Part shown: piece after piece, positions 7,983 through 29,254 of the stretch
Layout: every line of letters starts with the position of its first letter
Numbering within the stretch: position 1 is the first letter of the stretch
Source: Candidatus Doudnabacteria bacterium
Lineage (GTDB): Bacteria > Patescibacteriota > Doudnabacteria > UBA920
DNA length: 64,000 nt
Assembly: GCA_963768175.1 (NCBI GenBank)
Contig: CAVYGQ010000001.1
Location: 766,305-830,304 of the forward strand
Reading direction: 5' to 3'
The notes under the pieces: generated by a model
The model's input: the letters and a program-made list of their open reading frames with translations, nothing else
Told to the model about the DNA's origin: nothing
The model's database searches: none
Made by a program: the position numbers and the translations under genes

Positions 7983-8507
7983 TTATTTCGGAACTGGCAG
8001 GCCGATCTTTTTTAGTGGTAAGAACTGAAAATAATATTCACAACCCATTGAGATAACATAGTCTAAAGAGTCCTTATACCTTGGTTGCCGAAACCAATTG
8101 CTTAAAATATAAATATACTGAACTTTTATATTAAGTGGCTCCATAAGTTTTTTATATATTTTCTTTTTAAAATCGCAGGTTTGTAGCTTTTCATCAACTG
8201 AACCGGGAGTTTTTTGAAACTTTATTTCAATAACAAAAAGAGTGTTGTTTATTATAACAAACACCGCTTCGTCAGGGAGCCATTTTTTTGAAACTATTTT
8301 TTTATAATCAACTCCTTGTGATTCTAAATACTTATAAAGTGCATTTTTTCTATAACTCCTCGCAACCTCCTTGCCATTAAAAAGAATCGTGTGATCGTTA
8401 TATACTGTATAGCCTTTAGTTGTAGACAGCAACGTTAAAATATCTACCCGCTTTTCAAATTTTAGGCCTGTTTTTGTATTGGCTCCACCCTTACCTTTTT
8501 CTATCAT
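7983..8507 (-). CDS. putative PD-(D/E)xK-fold nuclease, candidate Type II restriction endonuclease
   Basis: WLPDEAVFVIINNTLFVIEIKFQK gives PD...(E)IK catalytic-motif spacing; lies in an operon with a DNA methyltransferase. Confidence 0.45.
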   Translation of the reverse strand: MIEKGKGGANTKTGLKFEKRVDILTLLSTTKGYTVYNDHTILFNGKEVARSYRKNALYKYLESQGVDYKKIVSKKWLPDEAVFVIINNTLFVIEIKFQKTPGSVDEKLQTCDFKKKIYKKLMEPLNIKVQYIYILSNWFRQPRYKDSLDYVISMGCEYYFQFLPLKKIGLPVPK

Positions 8508-8526
8508 AAATTTTTGCTGGATGTAA

Positions 8527-8961
8527 TTATAAATTATTTATAAGGTTGAGTTCAATTGAATGAGGCTTCCTATTTCGTTTTAAATACTCTCTTCCATTAT
8601 ATGCCAGCAATACAATAGCATCGTACCCGAGTTTTTTTGCTTTTTTATACATCTTAGAATCTAAACTAATTCTGCGGTTATACCAACCATCACCATCTTT
8701 TAAAGCTCCGGCATATAACTTCTTAAATTCTTTTGGAAACAAATGTTTTAAAATCCTAATTTCGGAAGTGCCACAAATTGGATTCAAAATTTTAACCTTT
8801 TCTGGGATGTCATTCGGCCTGCCGTAAAACTCGGCGTGCTTATATGTGGATGCAAGAAACTTGCCTCTCTTGTTATAAGCATTTGGATCAAGAGGGGTTA
8901 CATGCCACCATTTGGATTTATTAACTTTGTCAATAAGAATTTTTTTTAGAGAAGCTCTCAT
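8527..8961 (-). CDS. hypothetical protein (144 aa) within the R-M operon
   Basis: Start overlaps the MTase stop by 4 nt; no recognisable motif. Confidence 0.4.
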   Translation of the reverse strand: MRASLKKILIDKVNKSKWWHVTPLDPNAYNKRGKFLASTYKHAEFYGRPNDIPEKVKILNPICGTSEIRILKHLFPKEFKKLYAGALKDGDGWYNRRISLDSKMYKKAKKLGYDAIVLLAYNGREYLKRNRKPHSIELNLINNL

Positions 8962-9908
8962 AATAGTTGCCGTTGCGCTATTTTTGTAATAGCTGTAAAT
9001 TGAATTTTGGCTTTATTGTCTTTTGTATTTTGAATTCGTTTTATAGGGAGCATTATTTTATCCATTTCTCGTAGTCTTTTTATTGACAAATCCAAATACT
9101 TCTCTTCCATATCAATACCGATAAACTTTCTTTTAAAAGCGCTGGCCGCAATTCCGGTGGTGGAACTTCCGGTAAAAGGATCCAAGATCACATCTCCTTC
9201 TTTAGTACTTGCCAAAACAATTCGCTTAAGCAAATCTATGGGCTTTTGGGTTGGGTGTTTACCGAACTTTTTTTCTGACTTTCTTGGGGTCAGAATAGAC
9301 CAAACAGAGCGCATCTGCAAGCCTTCTTTCTTTAAAAAATCTTCAGGCCATTGGCCGTTCTTCATTAAATCATAATTAAAGGTGTGCTTGGCCTTTTTAT
9401 CTTTTCGCGCCCAAATAATAGTTTCATGGCTAGCGGTAAAAAAACGGCAACTTAAATTTGGTGAGGCATTTGGCTTAAACCAAGAAATATCGTTTAGAAT
9501 GTGATATCCCAAAGCCTGCAATGCATGGCCGCATTGATAAATGGAGTGGTAAGTACCGCTAACCCAAAGGCTGCCTGCCGGTTTTAAAACTCTTTTACAT
9601 GCTTCTAGCCATTTAAAATGAAATTCGTAATCGTCCTTAAAACCTTTACTTTTGTCCCAGTTCCCTTTGTTTACGCTTACCATTCTTCCTGCGTGTACAG
9701 AAAAACCTCCATTAGATAAGTTGTATGGGGGGTCGGCAAAAATCATATCTACACTATTTTCCGGAAGCTGACTTAAAATATCCAGACAGTTTGCATGATA
9801 CAAAACAAAATTATCCTTAATAAAATAAGGTTTTTGGGCGATATTGGATAATATTTTCGCTCCGTTTTCCATTTTTTTTCTTTTGTTGATTTTTCGTCTT
9901 TTTTTCAT
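8958..9908 (-). CDS. beta-class amino DNA methyltransferase (N4-cytosine or N6-adenine), motif IV DPPY preceding motif I; true start probably the internal ATG (MENGAK, about 9872)
   Basis: MIFADPPYNL (DPPY); C-terminal ILDPFTGSSTTGIAA (FxGxG-like AdoMet-binding loop); the -10 box abuts the first ATG. Confidence 0.8.
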   Translation of the reverse strand: MKKRRKINKRKKMENGAKILSNIAQKPYFIKDNFVLYHANCLDILSQLPENSVDMIFADPPYNLSNGGFSVHAGRMVSVNKGNWDKSKGFKDDYEFHFKWLEACKRVLKPAGSLWVSGTYHSIYQCGHALQALGYHILNDISWFKPNASPNLSCRFFTASHETIIWARKDKKAKHTFNYDLMKNGQWPEDFLKKEGLQMRSVWSILTPRKSEKKFGKHPTQKPIDLLKRIVLASTKEGDVILDPFTGSSTTGIAASAFKRKFIGIDMEEKYLDLSIKRLREMDKIMLPIKRIQNTKDNKAKIQFTAITKIAQRQLL

Positions 9909-10114: not shown

Positions 10115-13100
10115 CTACTCTTCCCCTTCTTCCATAGCGCTGGAGGCGGCGGCTTCCAATTGCAAATTTTCTCTGGCAATTTGTTCGGTAAAACCGGTGC
10201 CGGCCGGAATAAGTTTGCCAATAATGACATTCTCTTTCAAACCGCGCAAATAATCGGTCTTGCCGGTAACAGCGGCTTCTATTAACACACGGGTTGTCTC
10301 TTGGAATGAAGCTGCGGCCAAAAAGGAATCGGTATTTAAAGATACCTTGGTAATGCCCATAAGCAGCTGTTCGGACTGAACTGGGCGTTTGCCCGCGGCT
10401 TTAAGCTCGGCGTTAATAAAACCCAGCTTGGCCTTGTCCGCGACTTCGCCTACCGTTAATTCGCTGTCGCCGGAATCGGTTACCCTGACCTTGCTGAACA
10501 TTTGCTTAACAATAATTTCAATGTGTTTGTCGTGAATGTTTTGCCCCTGGGAAACGTAAATATCCTGGACTTCCTTGACAATATATTTTTGCGCCGCTTC
10601 CACGCCGCGCAAATGCATAATTTGTCCGGGATTTAAGTTGCCTTCGGTCAGCTGCTGGCCTTTGGTAACCAAGTCGCCGTCTTTAAGCAGCAGCGACAGC
10701 GAAGCCGGAATGATATATTCTTTAACCTGGTCGCTTTCGTGAAAAATAATAATTTGGTTTTTTTCTCCGCCGGAGGCCGATCCCGCTCTGCGGGACAAAC
10801 GGACCATACCGGCGGTTTTGGCCTTAACGGCTTTGCCGCTTTCGTCTATGTATAATGTTTCCCCGGATTCAACCTTACTGCCGTCTTTAATGGTAGATTG
10901 CGCCCGGCCTAAATCGTAAGTGTCTTTGGTGGCGTCCTCACCCTGAATCCTGATAATATATTCTTTGTTATTGGGTTTGGCAATGTAAACCTGCCCGTCT
11001 ATTTCCGACACATAAGCCTGTCCTTTGGGCTCGCGGGCTTCAAACAACTCTTCCACGCGGGGCAAACCTTGGGTAATATCTTTAACCGAAGCCGAGCCTC
11101 CGGTATGGAAGGTTCTCATGGTCAGCTGGGTGCCCGGCTCGCCAATGGATTGGGCAGCCACAATTCCCACAGCCGCGCCAAGGCGGACCATATCGTTAAA
11201 GCCCAAATCGTAACCATAGCAAAGCCTGCAAACTCCCCTGGAAAGCTTGCATTTCAATACGCTTCTGCATTTTACCTCTTCAATTCCGGCGTCTACAATT
11301 TTTTTGGCCTGCAAATCGTCAATCCCGTGATTTTTTTCCACAATGACATTACCTTTTTTATCCTTTAACTCTTCGGCGGCCACCCGGCCGAATAATCTCC
11401 TGTCAAAAGGCTTGTTCATGCGCTTGCTCTCTTCCTGGGTTATCAGGTCACAGTCTAGAGTGCCGCAGTCCTCGCTGTTAACTACAATGTCCTGGGCCAC
11501 GTCCACCAGGCGGCGGGTTAAGTAGCCGGCATCGGCCGTGCGCATGGCGGTGTCGGACATGCCTTTCCGGCTGCCGTGCGTGGAAATAAAATATTCCAAA
11601 ACGTTTAAACCTTCTTTAAAACTGCCCTTAACCGGAAGCTCAATAACGTCACCAGCCGGATTAACCACCAGTCCCTTCATGCCGGACATTTGGGTAATTT
11701 GGGAAAATGACCCTCTGGCCCCCGAGGACACAAAATAATTGACGCTGCCGTATTCGGCCACGGTGCCGTTAACCGACTTGGCGATTTTTTCCGAAACGTC
11801 AGCCCAAATTTCCACCACGCGGTTATAACGTTCGTCTTCGGTCAGCAAGCCTTCCTGATATTGCTGGTAAGTGCCTTCCACTTCCCCGTCGGCGGTTTTC
11901 AGCGTCTCATATTTGCCGGCCGGAACCAACAGGTCGTCCATGCCCCAGGACAAGCCGGACTTTTTCATATAGTAAAAACCCGTGCGCTTAATTTCATCAA
12001 TCAGCTCCGCGGTCTTTTCGTTGCCGAGCAGGCGGTGCGCTTCGCGCACCAGGCCCTGTAATTTCTTTTTATCAAAATTGTCATTGCGGAAACCCAGCTC
12101 CGGAGGCACAACTTTATTAAAAATCAGCCGGCCCACGGAAGTCTCCACGATTTCGCCGTTTTCTCCGCCAGTGACGGATCCGCCTTCGGCGGACAGCCTA
12201 ACTTTAATTTTGGCCTGGATATGGACGTAGCCGTTATTGTAAGCCAAAATGGCTTCAGCGGGGGAAGAAAATATTTTGCCTTCGCCCTTCTGGCCCAAGC
12301 GAATTCTGGTAATATAATAACAACCCACCACCACGTCTTTGTCCGGAGTCATAACCGGATCTCCCGAAGCGGGCTTAAGCAAATTGTGCGCGGAAACCAT
12401 AATTTCGCGCGCTTCCTTTTGCGCTAATTCCGTCAAAGGCACGTGCACGGCCATTTGGTCGCCGTCAAAATCCGCATTAAACGCGGCGCAGACCATGGGG
12501 TGCAGCTGAATGGCCTTGCCTTCTATTAATACCGGCTGGAAGGCCTGAAAACCCAGGCGGTGCAAAGTCGGAGCGCGGTTTAATAAAACATAGTGGTCTT
12601 TGGTGACTTCTTCCAAAATGTCGTAAACTTCGGTCCTGCCCTGTTCAATCAGGCGGTTGGCGCTGCGAACGTTATGCGCGTACTCGCGGCCGATAAGCTT
12701 GCTGATAACAAAAGGCTTAAACAGCTCCAGTGCCATCATTTTTGGCAGGCCGCATTGATGCAGTTTCAGGTTGGGACCCACCACAATAACGCTGCGGCCG
12801 CTGTAATCCACGCGCTTGCCCAAAAGGTTTTGGCGGAAGCGCCCCTGCTTGCCTTTAAGCATGTCGGCCAAAGAGCGCAGCTTTCTTTTTTGGCCCGTGC
12901 TGGCGGTGACTTCCTTGCCGTGGCGGATGCTGTTGTCAATAAGCGCGTCCACCGCTTCCTGCAGCATGCGCTTTTCATTTCTGGTAATGACTTCCGGCGC
13001 CTTAATTTCCAAAAGTTTTTTTAAACGATTGTTGCGGTTAATGACGCGGCGGTATAAATCGTTTAGGTCCGAGGCCGCAAACCGGCCGCCGTCTAGCTGC

Positions 13101-14071
13101 ACCATGGGGCGCAAATCCGGCGGGATGACCGGCAACATGGAAATAAGCATCCATTCGGGCCGCAGGCCGGAGTTGATTAACGATTTTACCAGCTTCATGC
13201 GTTTTAAAATTTTTCTCTCGGCCTGGCCTTCCAAATTCGGCAAGCTGGTTTGCAAATCCGAAAGCAGCTGCTCCAGGTTGATCTCTTCCAAAAGCCCTTT
13301 TATGCCTTCGGCGCCAATACTGGCCGAAAACACCGGCCCGTATTTTAAAGACAAATCGCGATACTGGAGTTCGCTGATAATTTGCATTTTCTTGATGGAC
13401 TTCAGCTCGGCTCTGGCCTGGTCGCGGATGCTTTCTAGGGCTTGCAGTTCCTTGCTCCAGGCGTCTTTCAGCCGGGTGACTTCCGCGTCAATTTCCGCCT
13501 GAAAGATGTCCGGATCTTTTTGGGAAGATTTTTGCCCGATGCTGGATTTGGATTTGCCGATTAAAGTTTCAAATTTCTCTTCAATGACTTTCTTCTTGGC
13601 TTTAAACTCGTGTTCAATCTGCTCCAAAGTTGACATTCTGGCTTCTTCGTCCACGGAGTTGATAATGTAAGCCGCAAAATAAATAACTTTTTCCAGCTCC
13701 TGTACGCCCAAATCCAAAATCAAACCCAAACGGGAAGGCACGCCGCGCAAAAACCAGATGTGCGCGGTCGGCACGGCCAGTTTAATGTGGCCCATGCGCT
13801 CGCGCCTGACGGAGGATTTGGTGACTTCCACGCCGCACTTGTCGCAGACAATCCCCTTGTAGCGGATTCTTTTGTATTTGCCGCAATAGCACTCCCAGTC
13901 TTTTATGGGGCCGAAAATCTTTTCGTCAAAAAGCCCGTCCTTTTCCGGGCGCTGGGTGCGGTAATTAATGGTTTCCGGCTTGGTAACTTCGCCGTGCGAC
14001 CACTGCATAATGGTCTCCGGGCTGGCGAGCTTCAACCGTACGCCTTTGAAATCTTCTGTCTGTGTGAACAT
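10115..14071 (-). CDS. rpoC: DNA-directed RNA polymerase subunit beta'
   Basis: NADFDGDQMAVHVPL catalytic loop; zinc-binding CYCGKYKRIRYKGIVCDKCGVEV; 1318 aa. Confidence 0.97.
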   Translation of the reverse strand: MFTQTEDFKGVRLKLASPETIMQWSHGEVTKPETINYRTQRPEKDGLFDEKIFGPIKDWECYCGKYKRIRYKGIVCDKCGVEVTKSSVRRERMGHIKLAVPTAHIWFLRGVPSRLGLILDLGVQELEKVIYFAAYIINSVDEEARMSTLEQIEHEFKAKKKVIEEKFETLIGKSKSSIGQKSSQKDPDIFQAEIDAEVTRLKDAWSKELQALESIRDQARAELKSIKKMQIISELQYRDLSLKYGPVFSASIGAEGIKGLLEEINLEQLLSDLQTSLPNLEGQAERKILKRMKLVKSLINSGLRPEWMLISMLPVIPPDLRPMVQLDGGRFAASDLNDLYRRVINRNNRLKKLLEIKAPEVITRNEKRMLQEAVDALIDNSIRHGKEVTASTGQKRKLRSLADMLKGKQGRFRQNLLGKRVDYSGRSVIVVGPNLKLHQCGLPKMMALELFKPFVISKLIGREYAHNVRSANRLIEQGRTEVYDILEEVTKDHYVLLNRAPTLHRLGFQAFQPVLIEGKAIQLHPMVCAAFNADFDGDQMAVHVPLTELAQKEAREIMVSAHNLLKPASGDPVMTPDKDVVVGCYYITRIRLGQKGEGKIFSSPAEAILAYNNGYVHIQAKIKVRLSAEGGSVTGGENGEIVETSVGRLIFNKVVPPELGFRNDNFDKKKLQGLVREAHRLLGNEKTAELIDEIKRTGFYYMKKSGLSWGMDDLLVPAGKYETLKTADGEVEGTYQQYQEGLLTEDERYNRVVEIWADVSEKIAKSVNGTVAEYGSVNYFVSSGARGSFSQITQMSGMKGLVVNPAGDVIELPVKGSFKEGLNVLEYFISTHGSRKGMSDTAMRTADAGYLTRRLVDVAQDIVVNSEDCGTLDCDLITQEESKRMNKPFDRRLFGRVAAEELKDKKGNVIVEKNHGIDDLQAKKIVDAGIEEVKCRSVLKCKLSRGVCRLCYGYDLGFNDMVRLGAAVGIVAAQSIGEPGTQLTMRTFHTGGSASVKDITQGLPRVEELFEAREPKGQAYVSEIDGQVYIAKPNNKEYIIRIQGEDATKDTYDLGRAQSTIKDGSKVESGETLYIDESGKAVKAKTAGMVRLSRRAGSASGGEKNQIIIFHESDQVKEYIIPASLSLLLKDGDLVTKGQQLTEGNLNPGQIMHLRGVEAAQKYIVKEVQDIYVSQGQNIHDKHIEIIVKQMFSKVRVTDSGDSELTVGEVADKAKLGFINAELKAAGKRPVQSEQLLMGITKVSLNTDSFLAAASFQETTRVLIEAAVTGKTDYLRGLKENVIIGKLIPAGTGFTEQIARENLQLEAAASSAMEEGEE

Positions 14072-14078
14072 AGAGGAA

Positions 14079-14116
14079 GTGATTAGTGCTTAGTGGTTAG
14101 TGGTTAGTTTGTAGTG
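14079..14116. repeat. degenerate TAGTG-type tandem repeat immediately upstream of the rpoC start
   Basis: gtgattagtgcttagtggttagtggttagtttgtagtg. Confidence 0.7.
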
Positions 14117-14160
14117 CAGGCCATTGGCCTGCCTTGATGTAAATGAAATATTTTCTCTTC

Positions 14161-14259
14161 GGCGTCATTCTGAGGGAGTGCATCCGACCGAAGAATCTCT
14201 AACCTGCATGAGATCCTTCGCCCGCTTGCTTTTACCGATGACGGGCTCAGGATGACGCC
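14161..14259. mobile_element. MITE-like palindromic element copy 1 (99 bp) with 14-bp terminal inverted repeats GGCGTCATTCTGAG/CTCAGGATGACGCC
   Basis: Terminal inverted repeats plus internal gcatccgaccgaag/atgagatccttcg motifs shared with the copies at 25348, 27879, 29169 and 57073. Confidence 0.75.
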
Positions 14260-14345
14260 ACTAGTAGGTGCCCTTTACAACTCTCTCTCTGTGTGCTATT
14301 TTTAGCTGTCCGATTCTTTTCGGAATGCGAAGGAGGTGAATTACA

Positions 14346-14624
14346 GTGGCTAACGTCCACAGACTGCTTGAAAATGTGGGGAAGGAGCTTCGTGCCTCTC
14401 GGGCAGGAGTAGGCATGTATTACGCTGGAATGGGAGCCAGAGAGCAAGGCCAAGTGGTGGAGAAAAATATGGAAAGGACTGAAATCAGGCTGGCAAGTAT
14501 CGCTCTACGGCTGAAACAAATCCAGTACGCCGCCGACATCGGAGACCTCACCGAAATCAAGCGGCTGCTCGCCGAGGAGATCCCGGTCAATGTTCTGCAA
14601 GCCCCGCAAACCCAGCCTGCCTAA
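14346..14624 (+). CDS. hypothetical 92-aa protein (GTG start, AGGAGG RBS), GC-rich cargo of cassette unit 1
   Basis: aggaggtg RBS 8 nt upstream; higher GC than the flanks; no family match recognised. Confidence 0.35.
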   Translation: MANVHRLLENVGKELRASRAGVGMYYAGMGAREQGQVVEKNMERTEIRLASIALRLKQIQYAADIGDLTEIKRLLAEEIPVNVLQAPQTQPA

Positions 14625-14630
14625 CTCGCG

Positions 14631-14735
14631 CCCGCCGGCGCAGACCTGCTTTGGCATCCGTAGATGCCCAAGTGGCGCCGCGGCAACCCCTTTTTTGACC
14701 GTTCAATCCGGTCAGGAGGGGTAATTTTTTTGCCC
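14631..14735 (+). terminator. conserved structured 3' element (nested hairpins cggcgc...ggcatc-cgta-gatgcc...gcgccg) followed by a CCCC...GGGG hairpin and U-tract
   Basis: The copy at 15128..15232 shows compensatory changes (ggcatc/gatgcc versus gacatc/gatgtc). Confidence 0.45.
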
Positions 14736-14847
14736 ACATTTATTTACATATGTAGAGGGCAGTCCGCCATAGCCTCTTTGTCCGACGAAGCTTTAGCGTA
14801 GTCGGATTTATCGGCTTAATTTTGAAATTTGGTATTGAAAATTGTGT

Positions 14848-14930
14848 AGCCGACCCGAATCTACAAATTGTATCCGAATGTTCCGAATTCGTGTCATTCG
14901 CGTGTAATTCGTATATCCGGATCGGTTATT
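14848..14930 (+). promoter_or_regulatory. CGAAT-rich promoter-associated element containing the core GACCCGAATCTACAAA
   Basis: Core shared with 51953..51968 and 62897..62912 (reverse complement); followed by ccgaat/attcg repeats. Confidence 0.45.
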
Positions 14931-15001
14931 GCTCTTTACAAACCTCTCTCTTATGTGCTATTTTTAGCTGCCCGATTCTTTCGGAAGGTGAAGAGGGTTT
15001 A

Positions 15002-15109
15002 TGAAAAAAAACGATTGGCAAATCTTGATATTGTTGATAGTGGTAGTAATCGCGACAATCGTCACAGTTGGTGGGGTGATCCTGTCAGCCATCGCCGTCC
15101 ATCACTGAT
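15002..15109 (+). CDS. 35-aa hydrophobic (single-TM) peptide MKKNDWQILILLIVVVIATIVTVGGVILSAIAVHH
   Basis: ATG with gaagaggg RBS inside the conserved leader of unit 2; not in the track (under 60 aa). Confidence 0.35.
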
Positions 15110-15127
15110 TCGTCGCCTCCCCGCCAC

Positions 15128-15232
15128 GCCCGCCGGCGCAGACCTGTTTTGACATCCAAAGATGTCAGAGCGGCGCCGCGGCAGCCCCTATCCAGTCGTT
15201 CAAACCGACGGAACCTGGGGCTTTTCTTTTTG
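15128..15232 (+). terminator. second copy of the conserved structured 3' element plus U-tract
   Basis: cgcccgccggcgcagacctgttttgacatccaaagatgtcagagcggcgccgcgg ... ggggcttttcttttt. Confidence 0.45.
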
Positions 15233-15258
15233 TAAATTTTTTAAGGTTCTTTGTCTTA

Positions 15259-15347
15259 TCCCCCTCTTAATATAAGAGGGGGTAGGGGGTGATATTTATC
15301 TTTGCGATAATATCCCCTCCTAGCCTCCCCTTATTCTAAGGGGAGGA
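15259..15347. repeat. C/G-rich palindromic element (two hairpins: ccccctctta-ata-taagaggggg and cctcccc-ttattctaa-ggggagg), intergenic, downstream of rpoB
   Basis: Member of the same poly-C/poly-G palindrome family as 4928, 23448, 35291 and 59194. Confidence 0.65.
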
Positions 15348-15370
15348 ATATTGTACCTATGTCTTCTCCT

Positions 15371-15408
15371 ATTCACTATTCACTATTCACTATTGCCTAT
15401 TCGCTATT
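15371..15408. repeat. heptamer tandem repeat (TATTCAC)n abutting the rpoB stop codon
   Basis: attcactattcactattcactattgcctattcgctatt. Confidence 0.75.
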
Positions 15409-18400
15409 TCTTCTTCTCCTTTTTCGGCTTTTTCTTAACTTCATCATCAAACAAAGAAGTTTCGGCTAAAATCGGCACTACCGGCGGTAAATTAGGCACT
15501 ACGATTTCCGGCTCTTCCGCCGCACTGCTTACCGCACCGTCGCGGCCTAAAAGCTCTACATCCATACACAGCGACTGGAGCTCTTTTACCAATACGCGGA
15601 AAGACTCCGGGATGTTCGGCTTTTTAATAGCTTCCCCTTTTACAATGGCCTCATAAGTTTTTGAACGGCCAACCACATCATCCGATTTTATAGTCAGCAT
15701 TTCCTGCAAAGTGTGCGCCGCGCCATAGCCTTCCAGCGCCCAAACTTCCATTTCCCCAAAACGCTGGCCGCCGAACTGGGCTTTTCCGCCCAAAGGCTGC
15801 TGGGTAATTAGGCTATACGGGCCAGTACTGCGGGCGTGCATCTTGTCGTCAACAAGATGGTGAAGCTTTAAGAAATACATAACTCCCACGGTAACTTTTT
15901 CGTCAAAAGGCTCGCCGGTTTTGCCGTCGTAAAGCGTCACCTTGCCGTCTTGTGGGATGCCGGCCTTTTTAAGCTCTTCTTTAATTTTATGTTCGGGTAC
16001 CCCGTCTAAAACGGGAGTCGCCACTTTATAACCCAGGCGATGGGCGGCCATGCCCATGTGGGTTTCCAAAATTTGACCCAGGTTCATGCGGGACACAACG
16101 CCAAGCGGGTTTAAAATAATATCCACGGGAGTGCCGTCTTCCATAAACGGCAGGTCTTCCACCGGAATAATTTTGGAAATGACGCCTTTGTTGCCGTGGC
16201 GGCCAGCCATTTTGTCGCCGACCTGGACTTTGCGCAAAACCGCGACCGAGACCTGGATGCTGCGAATAACGCCGCTTTGCAGCTTGTCCCCGGCTTCGCG
16301 CGTAAACTGGCGGATGTTAACGACTTTTCCGTATTCGCCGTGCGGCAAGGTAAGGGAAGTATCTTTCACGTCCCGGGACTTTTCGCCGAAAATAACTCTC
16401 AGGAGTTTTTCTTCCGCGGTTAAATCGGTCTCACCTTTGGGCGTGATTTTGCCGACTAAAATATCGCCAGCTTTTATCTGGGCACCAATGCGGATAATGC
16501 CGTTCTCGTCCAAATCCTTTAATTTTTCCTCGCCGACATTGGGAATATCCCGCGTTACCTGCTCCGGCCCGAGTTTGGTATCGCGCACGTCTATTTTAAA
16601 ATCATCAATGTGAATGCTGCTATAACGATCCTGCTGCACCAAGCGTTCGGAAATTAAAACCGCATCTTCGTAGTTGCCTCCCTCCCAAGACATAAAGGCC
16701 ACCAGCACATTTTGGCCCAAAGCCAGCTCGCCGCGATCCGTGGAGGCGCCGTCGGCTAAAATTTCGCCTTTCTTAATAGTCTGTCCCTTATTTACGCGGG
16801 CAATTTGGTTAATAGAGGTAGCGGAATTGGTACGCAAAAATTTCAGCAAAGGGTATTCTTTCTTTTTGCCTTTTTCGCCGACCACAATAATTTTTTCTCC
16901 GGTCACGGAAGTTACGATGCCGTCTTCATCGGCCAAAACCACGGTGCCACTGTCGCGCGCGGCCTTGCCTTCCATGCCCGTGCCGACTATGGGCGCTTCG
17001 GGCTTAATGCAGGACACGGCCTGGCGCTGCATGTTACTGCCCATAAGCGCGCGGTTGGCATCGTCGTGTTCCAAAAACGGAATCAACGAAGTGGTAACGG
17101 AAATAATTTGTTTTGGGGAAACATCCAAATAGTCTATGTCGTCGGTAGAAGCCATGGTCGGCACGGCGCGCACCCGGACGCTGGCTCTTAAATCCGCAAA
17201 GTGCCCGCGGTCATCAAGGTTAATATTGCTTTGGGCGATAATCAGCCGCTCTTCTTCATAAGCGTCCAAATATCTAATTTTATCCGTAACGCGGGGCTTA
17301 ATGCGGATTTCCAAAAGCTGGTGGTTTTTTGCCACTTCTTTGGCTTTGCCTGCGGTAATGGTTTCTCCGGCGGTAACTATTACGTCGCCTTTTTCGTCTT
17401 TAATATCATAAAGGGAAATTTCGTCTGCCAGATCCTTGCCGTCGTTTTTGGCGGATTTTTTTACCACCCGGTAGGGCGTTTCAATAAATCCAAAATTATT
17501 TACCCGCGCGTAAGTGGCCAAGTGGGCTACCAGCCCGATGTTCGGTCCTTCCGGCGTGGTAATCGGGCAAAGCCGCCCGTAGTGGCTGTGGTGCACGTCG
17601 CGGACTTCAAATCCGGCGCGCTCACGGGAAAGCCCTCCCGGCCCCATGGCAGACAGCCTTCTTTTGTGCTCCAGCTCGGCCAAAGGATTAGTCTGATCCA
17701 TAAATTGCGACAGCTGCGAAGAGGAAAAAAATTCCTGCATGGTCGCCACAATCGGCCGGACATGAATAAGCTGGGCCGGAGTCACGGTATCTAAATCCGC
17801 CAAGGACATGCGGTCTTTGGCAATTCTGGCCATGCGGGCAAGGCCTACGCGGAAACGGGCCTGGATAAGTTCGCCTACGGCCCTGACGCGGCGGTTAGCC
17901 AGGTGGTCAATATCATCCGGTGTGCCTTGGGAGTTGTTTAATTTAATTATTTCGCGAACGGCTATGACCAAATCTTCTTTGGTCAAAATCTGCCTATCTC
18001 GCTCTCTTAAAGCCGAGGCGGGGCTTTCGTTACCATCAACGTGCAAACGCTGATTAAACTTATAGCGGCCGACCGCGGAAAGATCATAACGTTCGGTGTT
18101 AAAAAACATTCCGGAAATTAAAGACTTGGCATTGTCTACCGTGGCTAAATCACCGGGTCTGATTCTTTTATAAACTTCCTTATAGCCTTCGTCCGGGTTG
18201 GTAGAGGCGTCCTTTTCCAAAGTGTTTTGGATATATTTGGTGTCCGGGTCGGTATCGACATCGGCAAAAGCGGCTAATATTTCTTCATTGCTGCCTAAGC
18301 CAAAAACTCGCAGTAGCGCGGTTATGGGGATTCTTCTTTTGCGGTCGATTTTAACGCCAATCACGCCGGTGGCGTCGGTATCCAGTTCCAGCCAGGCGCC

Positions 18401-18925
18401 GCGGTTAGGAATAATTTTGGCGCCGTAAAAATTTTTGCCGCGAAAATTTTCGGCGGTAAAAAATACGCCCGGGGATTTAATAAGCTGATTTACCACCACG
18501 CGCTCCACGCCGTTGATAATAAAAGTGCCGCGGGGGGTCATTAACGGGAAATCGCCAAAATAAACGTCCTGGGTCTTTACTTTGCCGGTTTGTTTATTGA
18601 CTAATTTTGCCGAAACATAAAGGGGGGCTTCGTAAGTGGTGTTTCTTTCCCGGGAAGTGAACTCGTCGTACTTGGATTTATCAAAAAAATAATCGCCAAA
18701 AAACATCTCCAGGTTTTTCCCGGTAAAGTCACGGATGGGATTGATTTCTCCCAAAAGTTCCTTAAGACCTTTTTCCACAAACCACTTATAAGATATCAAC
18801 TGCACCTCTATTAAGTTGGGCAGGAGGGCGGTTTCGTGGCTTTGGGTAAAAAACTTGCGGGCAAGAGCCTTAGTTTCGGGGAACTTAACCATGGCGGAGC
18901 TCATGGTCTTAGATTTATTGGCCAT
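15404..18925 (-). CDS. rpoB: DNA-directed RNA polymerase subunit beta
   Basis: 1173 aa; conserved beta-subunit blocks including the Rif-cluster region [38 protein letters not shown]. Confidence 0.97.
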
Positions 18926-19321: not shown

Positions 19322-19669
19322 CTATGCCGTACCGCTTTGCTTAATATAATCGCTAATCCGCTGCTGGTCTTCCCTCGCTTGCTCACCTTTAAAATACAGT
19401 TCAATAAAGACTATTTCTTTCTTGTTGGGGTGATAGGCATAAATTATCCTTAGTGTATTTTTCTTCAAAAATCGGCAAAAAAATCGCGCTTTGGCAATTT
19501 TTAACTCGCTGTTTTGGAATAAAACAGCAAAATGCTTGTCAGTTCCAAGCGGCACTTCTTCCAAAACTTTCTTGAACACTTCCAAATCTTCGGGCAGGGA
19601 AAGGTATTTTTTGCCCAGCCGTTTGCAATTTTTGGTAAATTCAGGTAATTCATTAAAGTTCATCGTCAT
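19322..19669 (-). CDS. RelE/ParE-superfamily (HigB-like) toxin; start assumed at the internal ATG (MTMNFNEL), overlapping the upstream antitoxin stop
   Basis: C-terminal RIIYAYHPNKKEIVFIELYFKGE pattern typical of RelE/ParE; 17-nt overlap with the HTH gene. Confidence 0.5.
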   Translation of the reverse strand: MTMNFNELPEFTKNCKRLGKKYLSLPEDLEVFKKVLEEVPLGTDKHFAVLFQNSELKIAKARFFCRFLKKNTLRIIYAYHPNKKEIVFIELYFKGEQAREDQQRISDYIKQSGTA

Positions 19670-20429
19670 AATTGCGGACCGAATGTTCCTGATCACGGTA
19701 AAAAACACTTTCGTAATCTATTGCTTCTCCGGGTTTATGAACCATCCAAGGTATATCTGAATGGGAATATTTGCTTAATTCCGAAGCGGATTTATCGGAA
19801 AGCCGGTTTAACACCTCGTCAATATGTGCCAATTCCCGCGCGGACAATACTGTTAAATCCGCCTCTTCTCTCGGTAAGTATTTTTTTTGCTCATACTGAA
19901 AATAGCTGCTTTTAACTTTTTCCAGTTCATTTTGCGCTTCCATTTCTTTAACCAAACTCGAAAATTCCCTGGGAGTGGGTCCAAAATGATTGCGGATATA
20001 AGTCGCGCCGGTTAATTGTTCCTCAAACTTTTCATAAAAATCAAAATCAACAAAATATAACAACTTATAAAGTGCAGTTTCACCTATGTTGGGTTTGGCG
20101 CCGACTTTCCCCAAAATATATAACAAAACACTTTTAAATTTGTCAACGTTCAACTTGGGGACATTAATTCTAACTTCATTTTCAATTTCCGATTTTTTTG
20201 CCCTATTATCTAATTTTACCTTATGCTCGATAGGCGAAATTTGCGCCAAAAAATCGTCTAAAGGCAAACCAAAAAGCTCCGCGAGTTTTTGAGCTTCAGA
20301 TACTGTTAGCTCCCTTTCCCCTTTTTCTATTTGCATATAAGTGGGGCGAGAGACATTAATTTTTTGGGACACAAAATTCTGGGAAAATTTCGCATTTTCC
20401 CTCAATTTTTTGAGATATAGTCCAGTCAT
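19653..20429 (-). CDS. XRE-family HTH antitoxin-like protein with a C-terminal roughly 170-aa domain (possibly DUF4065/Panacea-type)
   Basis: N-terminal LYLKKLRENAKFSQNFVSQKINVSRPTYMQIEKGERELTVSEAQKLAELFGL HTH_XRE; first gene of a two-gene operon behind a consensus promoter. Confidence 0.6.
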   Translation of the reverse strand: MTGLYLKKLRENAKFSQNFVSQKINVSRPTYMQIEKGERELTVSEAQKLAELFGLPLDDFLAQISPIEHKVKLDNRAKKSEIENEVRINVPKLNVDKFKSVLLYILGKVGAKPNIGETALYKLLYFVDFDFYEKFEEQLTGATYIRNHFGPTPREFSSLVKEMEAQNELEKVKSSYFQYEQKKYLPREEADLTVLSARELAHIDEVLNRLSDKSASELSKYSHSDIPWMVHKPGEAIDYESVFYRDQEHSVRNYDDEL

Positions 20430-20460
20430 AGGGCTTAATCCTTTATTATTACTTTTCTTA

Positions 20461-20488
20461 ATTATATCAAAGTTAAACTATTTGTCAA
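20461..20488 (-). promoter_or_regulatory. consensus sigma70 promoter TTGACA-16-TATAAT for the toxin-antitoxin operon
   Basis: Reverse complement reads ttgacaaatagtttaactttgatataat; about 25 nt upstream of the HTH gene start. Confidence 0.55.
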
Positions 20489-20603
20489 TAGCTATAGTAA
20501 ATAACCTTTACAAATCATCAATTCCCTGCTAAACTATAAGGTAAGGTGGAGGCCAATAACCGAAACCAAAACTAATAATTAACTTGCTATGAAAGGAGCA
20601 AAT

Positions 20604-20765
20604 ATGCCAAAGCAACATCGTCACGTTGTCGATTTTGTGGCCCACAAGAAAGTTAAGGAGCCTGTAGAAGTCACTTTTGTGACCAATAAGGGTAAAGTAG
20701 TGGATTTTCCGGCCCACAAAAAAGTCAAAGAACCTGTGGAAGTCAGGTTCAAGGCCAAAGATTAA
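20604..20765 (+). CDS. 53-aa protein with two tandem 17-aa repeats (VDFVAHKKVKEPVEVTF / VDFPAHKKVKEPVEVRF)
   Basis: aaaggagc RBS 4 nt upstream of the ATG; strong terminator immediately downstream; not in the track (under 60 aa). Confidence 0.4.
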   Translation: MPKQHRHVVDFVAHKKVKEPVEVTFVTNKGKVVDFPAHKKVKEPVEVRFKAKD

Positions 20766-20796
20766 ATTAACTTCAAAAAAATGAAATCAAAATTTT

Positions 20797-20836
20797 AAAA
20801 GGCCGCGGCCAAAATAGTCGCGGCCTTTTATTTTGT
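20797..20836. terminator. intrinsic terminator (11-bp perfect stem aaaaggccgcg/cgcggcctttt); also serves the convergent DUF262-HNH gene
   Basis: Perfect GC-rich stem with a U-tract. Confidence 0.7.
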
Positions 20837-20843
20837 ATATTTT

Positions 20844-21935
20844 TTATTTTCCGGATTTAGTTCTATTATCATCTACGCACAGCATCTGGCAATTTTCCGC
20901 CGTAGTCGCCCCTCCCTTGCTCCACGGTTTGATATGGTCGGCTTCCATTTCGGAAATATCATATTCTTTTTTACAAAACGGGCAAATGCCGTTTTGCCGC
21001 TCATACGCCTCACGCTTCATTTTGTCGGTAAAAGCACGGATTGAAAGGTATTTTTCTTGTCTCGTTAAAATATATGGGTAAATACCGGATTTTTTAGTTA
21101 CATCTTCGTCCTGCATTAACTCTTTAATTTCGGCTTCCAGTTTGCCGACATTCTGTTTCTTGTCTTTAAATTCGTTATACAGTTCGCCCCACTCTACACT
21201 ATTCATTTCCCGGCGATAATTCGTAAAAGTTTTTCGCACCCAATCAATTACTTCTTGAAAATACTCCCATAACTCATCGGCATTTTTATTATGCTGATGC
21301 TTAGCCATGTAATCTTCTATTTTGCCGTTGTTAATCCATGAAAGCGCGGTTTCCAAATATTCCTGCCGAATTGGCGAACCGCTTACCAACTGCCCGCCGT
21401 CGTTGGCCAGCAGATACGCCGCGCAATGCGTTTTGCTGAACTTTAGTTTTGCGTCACTAAGCCACGGCCCTGTGTAAACCGCGTTACGGATTTCCTGGTC
21501 GGTAAGTTTTTCGCCGGCGATGTTAATAATCCTGAACCAATCCAGCCGCTCTTTATCCGTGCCCTCGCAAAAATAAATCATCAGCTCGTAATCCAAAATC
21601 CGGTTTTGTTCTTCGTCGGTTAGATTATGAAAATACATCTCGTTAAGTGAAAAATCACCGGCAACATATTGCCCGATGCTAATGGTGCGCTGTTGGCCGT
21701 CCAAAACTTCAAAATTGCCGGAATCATTTTTCATCCAGTACATTACATTAAGCGGGAAGCCATTTTTGATGGTTTTAATAACGGCATTGCGCTGCTGCTC
21801 CTTATAAACAAACTCCCGCTGATATTTTGGCCGGATATCCAGCTTGCCGCTAAAAGCTACTACGCCCTCCTCGGCGCTGTCTTTATAACCAGCAATTACT
21901 TTTCGTATAGTGATGCGATGTAAATCTATTTTCAT
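20844..21935 (-). CDS. DUF262 (ParB/Srx-like, DGQQR motif) plus C-terminal HNH nuclease; GmrSD-like candidate restriction component
   Basis: LDGQQRTISI motif; HNH signature CPFCKKEY...ADHIKPWSKGG...NCQMLCVDDNRTK. Confidence 0.7.
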   Translation of the reverse strand: MKIDLHRITIRKVIAGYKDSAEEGVVAFSGKLDIRPKYQREFVYKEQQRNAVIKTIKNGFPLNVMYWMKNDSGNFEVLDGQQRTISIGQYVAGDFSLNEMYFHNLTDEEQNRILDYELMIYFCEGTDKERLDWFRIINIAGEKLTDQEIRNAVYTGPWLSDAKLKFSKTHCAAYLLANDGGQLVSGSPIRQEYLETALSWINNGKIEDYMAKHQHNKNADELWEYFQEVIDWVRKTFTNYRREMNSVEWGELYNEFKDKKQNVGKLEAEIKELMQDEDVTKKSGIYPYILTRQEKYLSIRAFTDKMKREAYERQNGICPFCKKEYDISEMEADHIKPWSKGGATTAENCQMLCVDDNRTKSGK

Positions 21936-21936
21936 A

Positions 21937-23004
21937 CTAATTGATTACTTTCTTATTTTTTATGATAACTCGCGCGTAAGGAACGTCAACGGCTCCATTT
22001 GTAATCATGTACAAATCACCATCAACAGCTCCTCTTTTTTGAATTTCTTTCCTGTATTTTTTGTGGTTTTCTTTATAGGGCTTAACCCCAATTTCTATTC
22101 CCGAATTGGATATTCCCAAACCGATAATCTCAAATTGCTCCGGATTATATTTATCAAGAAAGGTAATAGGCACCCCTATAGCACCATTGTAGTCTGCCGG
22201 GATTTCAGAAGTTTTATTAACGTTAATAGCATCAAAATTTTCATACTTGGGATATTCTGTGGGAGTATATTTTTTATAAAGTAAAAAATTTTCATGACGC
22301 TCTTCGTAATCAAGGTTTGTAAACCAACGCACGCCTTTAACGCGAATATACTTGTGCCCATCCGCATCAACACGATAACTTGCCGCGTTCAGAGGATAAT
22401 CATCTGGTACCTGAAATTCACGATCGCCGCTATGGATACTCGCTCCAAGCCACATATTATTTTCTTTTATTAACTTAAAACACTCTTTATAAGTAATTGC
22501 ATTTACATTTCCAATTATCAAAAATTTCTTATTGTACTCCACCAACTGCGCAATATATTCTCTTAACAAAGAAAACGGCGGGTTGGTTACCACGATGTCG
22601 GCTTCTTTCAGCAGTTCAATACACTCCTGGCTTCGGAAGTCACCGGTGCCTATCATTTTGGTCATAAAATCATGCGGGTCGGGAACACGGCTGCCCTTTT
22701 TGCCGCCGGTGTATTCCAGTTTATATGGCGGTTCGTGGGTAAAAAGGTTGGCTTCTTTGTAATGAGTGGCAATGAGTTTCTTAAGTCCCAGTTCCGCAAA
22801 ATTTATGCTAAAATATTTCACAAAATTGCTTTCTTTCGGGTCGTCGCAATTACAAAACACCACTTTACCGCGAAACTGGTCTTTGTAGTGCTTAAGCTCG
22901 TTTTCAATATCGGCAAGCTGGGTATAAAATTCGTCTTTTTTTGCCCTGCTAGCCGTATGTAGATTTTTGTTTAAAAATTTCTTTTCCATGATTATTTTTA
23001 CCAA
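21937..23004 (-). CDS. putative N6-adenine DNA methyltransferase (gamma-like motif order: DEFYTQ motif X, then NPPF motif IV)
   Basis: DIVVTNPPFSLL (NPPF); N-terminal DEFYTQL resembling the (G/D)xFYTP AdoMet-region motif; lies upstream of the DUF262-HNH gene. Confidence 0.6.
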   Translation of the reverse strand: MVKIIMEKKFLNKNLHTASRAKKDEFYTQLADIENELKHYKDQFRGKVVFCNCDDPKESNFVKYFSINFAELGLKKLIATHYKEANLFTHEPPYKLEYTGGKKGSRVPDPHDFMTKMIGTGDFRSQECIELLKEADIVVTNPPFSLLREYIAQLVEYNKKFLIIGNVNAITYKECFKLIKENNMWLGASIHSGDREFQVPDDYPLNAASYRVDADGHKYIRVKGVRWFTNLDYEERHENFLLYKKYTPTEYPKYENFDAINVNKTSEIPADYNGAIGVPITFLDKYNPEQFEIIGLGISNSGIEIGVKPYKENHKKYRKEIQKRGAVDGDLYMITNGAVDVPYARVIIKNKKVIN

Positions 23005-25347: not shown

Positions 25348-25433
25348 GGCGTCATTCTGAGCCCGAATGCATCTGAAGGCGAAGAATCTTTTATGAGATC
25401 CTTCGGTCGGATGCACTCCCTCAGGATGACACC
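25348..25433. mobile_element. MITE-like element copy 2 (86 bp)
   Basis: ggcgtcattctgag ... ctcaggatgacacc terminal inverted repeats; internal atgagatccttcggtcggatgcac. Confidence 0.75.
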
Positions 25434-29168: not shown

Positions 29169-29254
29169 GGCGTCATCCTGAACGCAGTGAAGGATCTCAA
29201 TCTTATCTTAGATGAGATTCTTCGCCTCGGATGCACTCGGCTCAGAATGACGCC
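29169..29254. mobile_element. MITE-like element copy 4 (86 bp)
   Basis: ggcgtcatcctgaa ... ctcagaatgacgcc. Confidence 0.75.

Follow-up and report, generated by a model that had tools for sequence, protein, structure and literature searches.

We describe here a site between the RNA polymerase genes rpoB and rpoC of a Candidatus Doudnabacteria bacterium, found in a 64,000-nucleotide stretch of its genome (the window; contig CAVYGQ010000001.1, positions 766,305 to 830,304 of the forward strand) in which two tandem monocistronic units lie at positions 14274-15232 of the plus strand. The spacer between rpoC and rpoB measures 1.33 kb and is filled by the two units on the strand opposite to both genes, with the unit 1 promoter directed away from the rpoC start and both units convergent with rpoB. 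The reading that we favor, to which we give a probability of roughly 0.6, is that of a slot, specific to this clade, for small-protein genes that are expressed autonomously, placed antisense in the rpoB-rpoC spacer and occupied in tandem here, whose shell of expression signals is kept while the open reading frames (ORFs) within it are swapped. The original prediction, made from the letters alone, had recognized an arrangement similar to a modular expression cassette, and had not identified it with any described system. The modular unit is borne out by the same shell, at the same locus, carrying other cargos in related genomes, and a literature search found no description of an antisense gene between rpoB and rpoC or of small proteins of Doudnabacteria. 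The antisense position between these two genes was not part of that prediction. The features of the locus are the following.

10115-14071, minus strand: rpoC (RNA polymerase beta'), a 1318-aa ORF whose start faces the unit 1 promoter.
14274-14302, plus strand: unit 1 promoter, predicted, with -35 TTTACA, a 17-nt spacer containing (CT)5 and extended -10 TGcTATTTT.
14303-14345, plus strand: unit 1 5' untranslated region (UTR), with stem-loop UCCGA-UUCUUU-UCGGA (14309-14324) and Shine-Dalgarno (SD) sequence AGGAGG (14331-14336).
14346-14624, plus strand: unit 1 ORF, 92 aa, GTG start, AGGAGG 9 nt upstream.
14629-14691, plus strand: unit 1 63-nt 3' element, a two-part hairpin with a 9-pair GC outer stem, an AGACC internal loop and an inner stem.
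14689-14731, plus strand: unit 1 intrinsic terminator, predicted, a 13-pair hairpin followed by T7, in the position that the one terminator of relatives occupies.
14732-14934, no strand assigned: inter-unit junction, composed of the types of sequence that relatives carry downstream of the terminator and upstream of the promoter.
14935-14964, plus strand: unit 2 promoter, predicted, with -35 TTTACA, an 18-nt spacer containing (CT)4 and extended -10 TGcTATTTT.
14965-15000, plus strand: unit 2 5' UTR, with a stem-loop and a weaker SD sequence, GAAGAGGG (14990-14997).
15001-15108, plus strand: unit 2 ORF, a 35-aa peptide with a single transmembrane (TM) segment, MKKNDWQILILLIVVVIATIVTVGGVILSAIAVHH.
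15127-15189, plus strand: unit 2 63-nt 3' element, with a continuous 12-pair inner stem and the outer stem of unit 1.
15183-15232, plus strand: unit 2 intrinsic terminator, predicted, a hairpin and UUUUCUUUUU, then a conserved AATTTTAAGGTTCT flank common to relatives.
15404-18925, minus strand: rpoB (RNA polymerase beta), an assignment supported by the Pfam architecture of its orthologues; its 3' end faces the unit terminators.

Each unit follows the same plan of near-consensus sigma-70-type promoter, 5' stem-loop, SD sequence, ORF, 63-nt hairpin and a terminator made of a hairpin and U-tract. The shared leader that had been proposed to head both units ahead of a ribosome binding site, TGTGCTATTTTTAGCTGNCCGATTCTTT, is 28 nt long and occurs exactly twice in the window (14292-14319 and 14954-14981) against an expectation of 0 from shuffled sequence. 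A consensus scan shows that this leader begins within the promoter and includes its extended -10, with TTTACA 17 or 18 nt upstream, so the leader is real and yet mostly promoter sequence. The full promoter pattern has three sites in the whole window, two of which are those of unit 1 and unit 2. The tandem arrangement is also present, identical across both units, in an independent Logan assembly contig of 1758 bp, which makes an assembly artefact an unlikely origin of the pair. A scan of metagenome contigs for the leader returned two matches, both in rpoB-rpoC spacers of relatives, and a scan of viral contigs returned none; within the data searched, the locus is unique rather than one of a dispersed family of cassettes.

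Two observations on the 5' region stand beside these results. The promoter spacers contain (CT)n runs, (CT)5 at 14281-14290 in unit 1 and (CT)4 at 14944-14951 in unit 2, and the 64 kb contain no other (CT)>=4 tracts; relatives have (CT)6 (L008), (CT)5 (L009), (CT)4 (L011), at least five repeats (L016) and (CT)8 (L017), and two others (L005, L006) have none. Across the genomes the distance between -35 and -10 is 17-19 nt and varies with the length of the (CT)n run, which may make this a slippage-tunable (phase-variable) promoter. The sole difference between the two leaders is GUCCG in unit 1 versus GCCCG in unit 2, and in the predicted fold of the unit 2 5' UTR (14971-14997, -8.2 kcal/mol) the 5' end GCCC pairs with part of the altered SD sequence (GAGGGU), a weak hint that translation might be masked in unit 2 only.

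At the 3' side, the claim of a structured element followed by a small hairpin and U-tract holds for both units. The whole 3' regions fold as a two-part hairpin and a second hairpin with U-tract, with folding z-scores of -3.5 and -4.0; the two 63-nt elements are 86% identical, and the stretch CGCCCGCCGGCGCAGACCTG taken from them has two copies in the window versus 0.01 expected. The proposed covariation of the stem fared less well. The alignment of the two elements has 21 pairs, of which the nine outer pairs are invariant, and the inner-stem change of ggcatc/gatgcc to gacatc/gatgtc is one two-sided compensatory pair (G-C to A-U); the remaining stem changes are three one-sided wobble changes and one broken pair, and with two sequences the pattern is not statistically distinguishable from shuffles (266/500). 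The covariation is therefore no more than suggestive. A covariance model of the element, run on the window with its filters off, recovered just the two known copies and matched nothing in 11 related loci, and a scan of species-representative genomes gave three matches, all of them chance matches in GC-rich genomes with different spacing. Further copies had been anticipated for both elements, and they exist for the leader, in relatives' rpoB-rpoC spacers only; for the 3' element the window, the relatives' loci and the species-representative genomes gave none beyond the window's two. When the regions are aligned with MAFFT, the terminator of relatives aligns with the second hairpin of each window unit, and the 63-nt element is thus an extra hairpin specific to the lineage of the window. 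A generic terminator common to unrelated genes had been named as the finding that would count against the element; the 3' hairpin of relatives is indeed the intrinsic terminator of their unit, but the 63-nt hairpin is lineage-specific, and the covariance model finds no copies of it behind unrelated genes in the window. Read in the sense direction of rpoB and rpoC, the unit terminators present the A-run first and the hairpin after it, so they would not terminate transcription in that direction.

The comparison with relatives carries most of the argument. We retrieved the rpoB-rpoC spacers of relatives through their RpoC proteins. The matches of the window's RpoC include an NCBI protein at 100%, encoded on a 949-kb contig, and metagenomic RpoC proteins at 94% (P0003) and 93% (P0004); the matches named Candidatus Doudnabacteria are at 86% and 80%, and RpoC thus assigns the organism to this group of the Patescibacteria. 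At least six related Doudnabacteria contigs for which DNA is available have one antisense unit each in the rpoB-rpoC spacer. The loci compared are listed below by RpoC identity to the window or, for two short contigs, by how they present themselves.

L005, 95%: cargo of 82 aa.
L006/L007, 94%: cargo of 56 aa with a CPFC zinc-ribbon-like end.
L011, 93%: cargo of 60 aa with two TM helices.
P0007 contig, 89%: antisense ORF of 80 aa, read without DNA.
L008, 87%: cargo of 69 aa.
L009, a 1.26-kb contig found by the leader pattern: cargo of 90 aa.
L017, 80%: cargo of 83 aa, a member of the unit 1 protein family.
L016, a 412-bp fragment: unit shell and a homologue of the unit 1 protein.
L012-L015, four relatives at 87%: no unit, spacers of 47-215 bp.

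The shell is recognizable throughout. Its -35 is TTTACA in all units except that of L009 (TTGACA), most promoter spacers have a (CT)n run, and the extended -10 reads TGnTAT(T/C)(T/C)T. The structure of the 5' stem-loop is kept while its sequence differs by lineage (UCCGA/UCGGA, GUCCA/UGGAC, UCGCA/UGCGA and GCC/GGC), and an AGGAGG-type SD sequence is present in most units and weaker in unit 2 and in L011. The terminator of relatives is one hairpin of about 18-23 pairs followed directly by six or seven U, the contig of L016 ending before any U-run. The AATTTTAAGGTTCT flank is kept in most of the units that have downstream sequence, is variant in L006 and is absent from L008 and L017. Even the small L016 fragment has a remnant of the CT-rich promoter, the 5' hairpin, AGGAGG and the long 3' hairpin. 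The 3' UTRs are C-rich and G-poor. In the window (15109-15130) and in L006, L011, L016 and L017, a tract rich in C and poor in G (such as CCAUCCCCGCCCACCCCGCUCAACCCC) separates the stop codon from the terminator hairpin, and its composition is similar to that of rut (Rho utilization) sites.

What lies inside the shell differs from genome to genome. Window and six relatives together provide seven different cargos read from DNA (the two members of the unit 1 family counted as one), and four different cargos are found within a tight clade of 93-95% RpoC identity. Several results argue that these are genes. In 7/7 units read from DNA, the start nearest to the SD sequence opens a frame that runs nearly to the terminator; the probability of such an open frame in shuffled sequence is 0.02-0.26 per unit, and the combined P is about 10^-8.8. 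The claim that the cargos are unrelated is supported as well: the coding DNA of unit 1 and unit 2 has no similarity beyond chance, and an all-against-all blastp of the cargos found no relationship, the one marginal pair (unit 1 and L009) being overruled by profile comparison. That pair had blastp E=0.023 in a tiny database and an hhalign probability of 0.5%. Between spacers, blastn matches are limited to the rpoC start, the promoter and leader, the terminator and hairpin region and the rpoB end. The flanking rpoB and rpoC DNA is 88-90% identical to the window in L005 and 81-88% in L006, flanking rpo DNA is 76-90% identical across the genomes that keep the shell (76-92% for shell and flanks taken together), and even weakly constrained spacer DNA can still be aligned at about 70%. 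Because similarity of the cargos is absent while flanks and spacer still align, the pattern points to cargos that were replaced and did not drift apart. Searches of all cargos against Pfam, PHROGs, PADLOC and NCBIfam gave no match above curated thresholds, and tblastn of four cargos against phage genomes gave nothing significant.

Unit 1 encodes the 92-aa protein that had been described, with its GTG start and AGGAGG. A word-index search returned only the protein itself, and it could have been taken for an orphan; an exhaustive search with HMMER then brought up five small proteins, 83-121 aa in length, with 37-44% identity and co-linear ends. The unit 1 protein is thus a member of a small family of helical-hairpin proteins of about 85 aa. 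One of these (P0135, 83 aa) sits in the same antisense slot in L017, and another (P0126) is encoded on the 412-bp L016 contig. The AlphaFold (AF2) model, built from the family alignment, has a confidently predicted helical hairpin (helices 2-29 and 32-64) and a short third helix, with a pLDDT (predicted local distance difference test) of 84, and a Foldseek search of this model against the PDB gave no match with E<=0.001. Matches to ankyrin and DARPin sequences, in PDB profiles and in databases, rest on one C-terminal motif of 24-28 residues, AAxxGxLxxVxxLL. Ankyrin-repeat proteins have tandem 33-residue helix-turn-helix-loop repeats and match Pfam Ank; the unit 1 protein has no Pfam match at E<=0.1 and its model is a long helical hairpin rather than a stack of ankyrin repeats, and we rejected this assignment. 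A role as a protein-binding adaptor would be a guess. Because a member of the family occupies the slot in the basal L017, the unit 1 protein is probably the ancestral occupant of the slot.

The 35-aa TM peptide of unit 2 was likewise found as described. It has a charged N-terminus and a 27-residue hydrophobic helix, its hydrophobicity was reached by 0/20,000 shuffles, and its codon positions are strongly structured, position 2 being 54% T. Judged by its sequence, the peptide is a strongly non-random TM helix; it could be guessed to be a small membrane modulator or a toxin-like peptide.

These observations can be combined in a proposed history of the slot. In a neighbor-joining tree of RpoC, L017 with its unit 1 family gene is basal, and lineages with and without a unit are interleaved. 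The simplest reading would be an ancestral unit with a unit 1 family gene, which was lost several times and whose ORF was replaced several times within the kept shell. The conserved shell and flanks, set against the absence of cargo similarity, suggest that the exchange was by homologous recombination, for which the shell and the rpoB and rpoC flanks could have served as homology arms. No transposase or integrase is present in the relatives' rpoB-rpoC spacers. The tandem pair may have come from a recombination event, unequal or illegitimate, that joined two alleles of the slot, as suggested by the junction, where sequence of the downstream-flank type is joined to sequence of the upstream-flank type. 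The downstream-type part has a GTCCGCCATAGC hairpin as in L005 and the upstream-type part a CGAAT-rich element as in L006, and the flanks upstream of unit 1 and unit 2 are like those of different alleles, of L005 type for unit 1 and L006 type for unit 2. Promoter, 5' hairpin and terminator would be under selection for high, insulated expression, with the long hairpins stopping convergent transcription before it enters rpoB. Since 5' stem-loops can stabilize mRNA, the 5' hairpin of the units may do so by analogy. Any transcript reading through from rpoB to rpoC would be fully complementary to the unit mRNAs, which makes it likely that unit expression and rpoC read-through interfere with each other.

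Several points weigh against the replaceable-gene slot. Promoters and terminators are consensus predictions. Recombination was deduced from the pattern of conservation, and no breakpoints or intermediates were seen. The RpoC tree has no support values. A selected role for the 63-nt element, absent from relatives, rests on two sequences, and the length of the unit 2 ORF alone is not significant (P=0.26). The search for the shell covered the window and about 5-10 kb around the relatives' loci, and further copies may lie elsewhere in the 949-kb source genome. A pooled homologue search with six other cargos came back empty, and this result is uninformative, as the search missed 3/6 queries that are present in the collection.

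As to what kind of slot this is, the best reading is one similar to a moron or to a minimal mobile element, duplicated in this genome. Phage morons are autonomous units of promoter, ORF and terminator inserted between genes of a conserved operon. The slot units are similar in being self-contained, with a predicted promoter and intrinsic terminator of their own, in standing between genes that are adjacent in relatives (the 47-215 bp spacers of L012-L015), in being present or absent among close relatives and in carrying cargo without known function. They differ in that the host is chromosomal and the flanks are rpoB and rpoC, with no match in phage or viral collections; that the units are inserted within the rpoB-rpoC pair and run in the direction opposite to it; and that one shell serves different ORFs in turn, where morons as a rule differ from each other in their entirety. 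The minimal mobile elements of Neisseria (Saunders & Snyder 2002, as cited in PMC1538595) are outlined there as variable genes between fixed flanks without mobility genes. The slot shares with them different genes between the same conserved flanks, no mobility genes and compatibility with homologous recombination. It differs in that the conserved arms include the promoter with 5' UTR and the terminator and only the ORF is exchanged, in that the cargo is just 0.1-0.3 kb, and in that the host is an uncultivated bacterium of the candidate phyla radiation (CPR). The site inside the rpoB-rpoC pair, its antisense direction and the use of the regulatory shell itself as the conserved arm, with only the ORF changing, are what is unusual about the locus.

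We weighed four other explanations. The first is that the shell serves antisense transcription, by RNA or by interference acting against read-through from rpoB to rpoC and in this way controlling the beta'/beta ratio, and that the ORFs are passengers. In its favor, nothing that lies between promoter, 5' hairpin and terminator is as conserved as these signals, and any cotranscript of rpoB and rpoC would be antisense to the unit over its full length. The minus strand of the window and of L006 yielded no sigma-70-like promoter for rpoC, and for transcription in the rpoBC direction the unit terminators do not have the form of terminators. The likeness is to the excludon and other convergent antisense arrangements of Listeria (PMC4179725), where the definition of an excludon requires that a long antisense RNA be observed: in both, a gene on the opposite strand lies within what is normally a single transcription unit, and here read-through to rpoC would be antisense and expression mutually exclusive. 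The difference is that the conserved features here belong to the small gene rather than to a promoter of a long antisense RNA, and that the geometry is known from sequence only. Passenger ORFs are also hard to bring together with an SD sequence and an insert-spanning frame in every unit (the combined P given above) and with the conservation of the unit 1 family as protein across lineages. The four relatives without a unit indicate that it is not needed for rpoBC expression, and L017 has a weak divergent promoter-like site. We consider this explanation unlikely.

The second takes the 35-aa peptide and the 60-aa cargo of L011, with its two TM helices, as membrane toxins of a module similar to type I toxin-antitoxin (TA) systems or to abortive infection, held in check by antisense rpoBC read-through RNA or by the unit 1 protein acting as immunity. 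The original prediction had called the peptide type-I-toxin-like, and by its sequence the peptide could be one: the helix looks genuine, and the small size, the charged N-terminus, the single TM helix and the combination of a separate promoter with a structured 5' UTR and a terminator hairpin recall Hok/Sok, TisB/IstR and Fst. The pairing of the GCCC 5' end with the GGGU of the SD sequence in the predicted fold and surroundings rich in defence and TA genes agree with it too. Against it, no dedicated promoter for an antisense small RNA was found overlapping unit 2, which leaves a hypothetical rpoB read-through transcript as the one antisense candidate, no toxin match was obtained in Pfam, PADLOC or NCBIfam, and 5/7 cargos are proteins that are soluble and share no relationship. 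In relatives the slot has a single gene and no pair, and the unit 1 family occurs alone in L017, hence it is not a dedicated immunity partner. We regard a toxin module as quite improbable.

The third, to which we attach equally little credence, is a plain tandem duplication followed by decay or de novo emergence of an ORF in one copy, with no exchange of cargo. The shells of unit 1 and unit 2 share about 86% identity in a single genome, the junction resembles a duplication joint, and T-rich sequence easily yields short hydrophobic ORFs, as the P value for the length of unit 2 reflects. Set against this, the cargos retain no residual DNA similarity in spite of shells that are 86% identical, the codon-position structure and extreme hydrophobicity of unit 2 are those noted above, replacement of the cargo is the rule at this locus across genomes, and the upstream flanks of the two units are of different allele types. 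The fourth, the suggestion of an array of cassettes, integron-like or of another site-specific kind, in which the 63-nt element would be the recombination site (an attC analogue), can be dismissed as next to excluded: it would fit tandem units with unrelated ORFs that each end in a structured, imperfect palindrome, but integrons have promoterless cassettes beside an intI tyrosine recombinase with attI and the Pc promoter, and here each unit has its own promoter, no GTTRRRY/RYYYAAC core was seen at the element boundaries (by eye; no pattern search was run), no integrase or other recombinase is among the neighbours examined (genes within about 10 kb of the units, scanned with hidden Markov models), and relatives with different cargos lack the 3' element, which has no more copies in the window and whose matches in species-representative genomes are chance only.

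The replaceable-gene slot could also be extended to a contingency locus coupled to the expression of the RNA polymerase genes, a speculation to which we would give little weight. Its cargos would be effectors of fast turnover (such as toxins directed at phage or acting in abortive infection, or modulators with RNA polymerase or host-cell partners as binding targets) gated by head-on transcription from rpoB to rpoC. A drop in rpoBC transcription, as in phage takeover or starvation, would de-repress the antisense unit, and slippage of the (CT)n run (4-8 repeats, spacers of 17-19 nt) would further tune its expression.

The remainder of the spacer has structure of its own, with two features outside the units.

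14161-14259, no strand assigned: palindrome similar to repetitive extragenic palindromic (REP) elements, GGCGTCATTCTGAG...CTCAGGATGACGCC, between the rpoC start and the unit 1 promoter.
15257-15349, no strand assigned: a cluster of three hairpins in tandem that separates the slot from the rpoB stop codon and is also kept in L005, L006 and L009.

The REP-like palindrome is filler outside the repeated shell. It is dispersed, being found also at 25351-25430 and 29172-29251 of the window and in the spacers of L005 and L011, and the same position has CGAAT-rich filler in L006 (compare window 14860-14930) and CAAAT/TTCAAAT-rich filler in L008 and L009. The three hairpins are perfect (CCCCCTCTTAATATAAGAGGGGG; GGGGGTGATA...TATCCCCTCC; CCTCCCCTTATTCTAAGGGGAGG), fold with -50.7 kcal/mol (z=-6.4) and have a U-tract on neither strand. 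In L005, L006 and L009 the sequence of their arms has changed and complementarity is retained; processing or stability of the rpoB 3' end and insulation are possibilities for their role. Rfam gave no match at gathering thresholds across the whole window, and on the spacer at E<=10 just sub-threshold microRNA-like matches on this hairpin cluster.

On the rpoC side, no promoter-like sites were found on the minus strand in 13900-15600. The rpoC start has no purine-rich SD site directly upstream of its ATG (14072-14110, minus strand) and is preceded by a G-free leader of CACTAA/CCACTAA repeats, which is kept in L005, L006, L008 and L009, is replaced by a related G-poor repeat in L017 and is absent from L011. 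The NCBI call for RpoC is 1297 aa, 21 aa shorter than the homologue-supported 1318-aa ORF.

Beyond the two polymerase genes the flanks hold variable defence and addiction genes (7983-9908 and 19322-23004): a PD-(D/E)XK-like gene with an N4/N6 methylase, an HTH-SocA/Panacea gene with a 128-aa partner, a GmrSD-HNH gene and an EcoRI-type methylase. The neighbours within about 10 kb of the units are rpoB, rpoC, a restriction-modification pair, an LCAT-like protein, the HTH-SocA antitoxin, GmrSD/HNH and the EcoRI-type methylase. In relatives the same flank positions hold DpnI and DndB, Dcm and Vsr, an SLFN-like helicase or BrnT/CopG (L005 7522-10176; L008 9083-11464; L015 7098-9897), and in relatives without a unit rpoC directly adjoins an aminotransferase gene. 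A further small autonomous unit is present at 20507-20830 of the plus strand, divergent from the HTH-SocA/Panacea antitoxin gene, with promoter TTTACA-N17-TGcTAAACT, SD sequence GAAAGGAG, a GC hairpin terminator and an ORF of 53-58 aa with the internal duplication VDFxAHKKVKEPVEVxF x2.

The rpoB and rpoC genes are among the most stably linked bacterial genes and are usually cotranscribed. A conserved antisense unit with strong signals in the spacer between them leaves two possibilities: in this CPR clade rpoB and rpoC no longer form one operon, or head-on transcription is tolerated or exploited there. The slot is a clear case, provided by nature, of an expression shell that stays fixed while the ORF inside it is exchanged between close relatives. 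It could be used to follow the turnover of small accessory genes in reduced CPR genomes and a possible recombination-based exchange of genes in uncultivated bacteria, and it may become a source of conservation-validated expression parts for CPR organisms.

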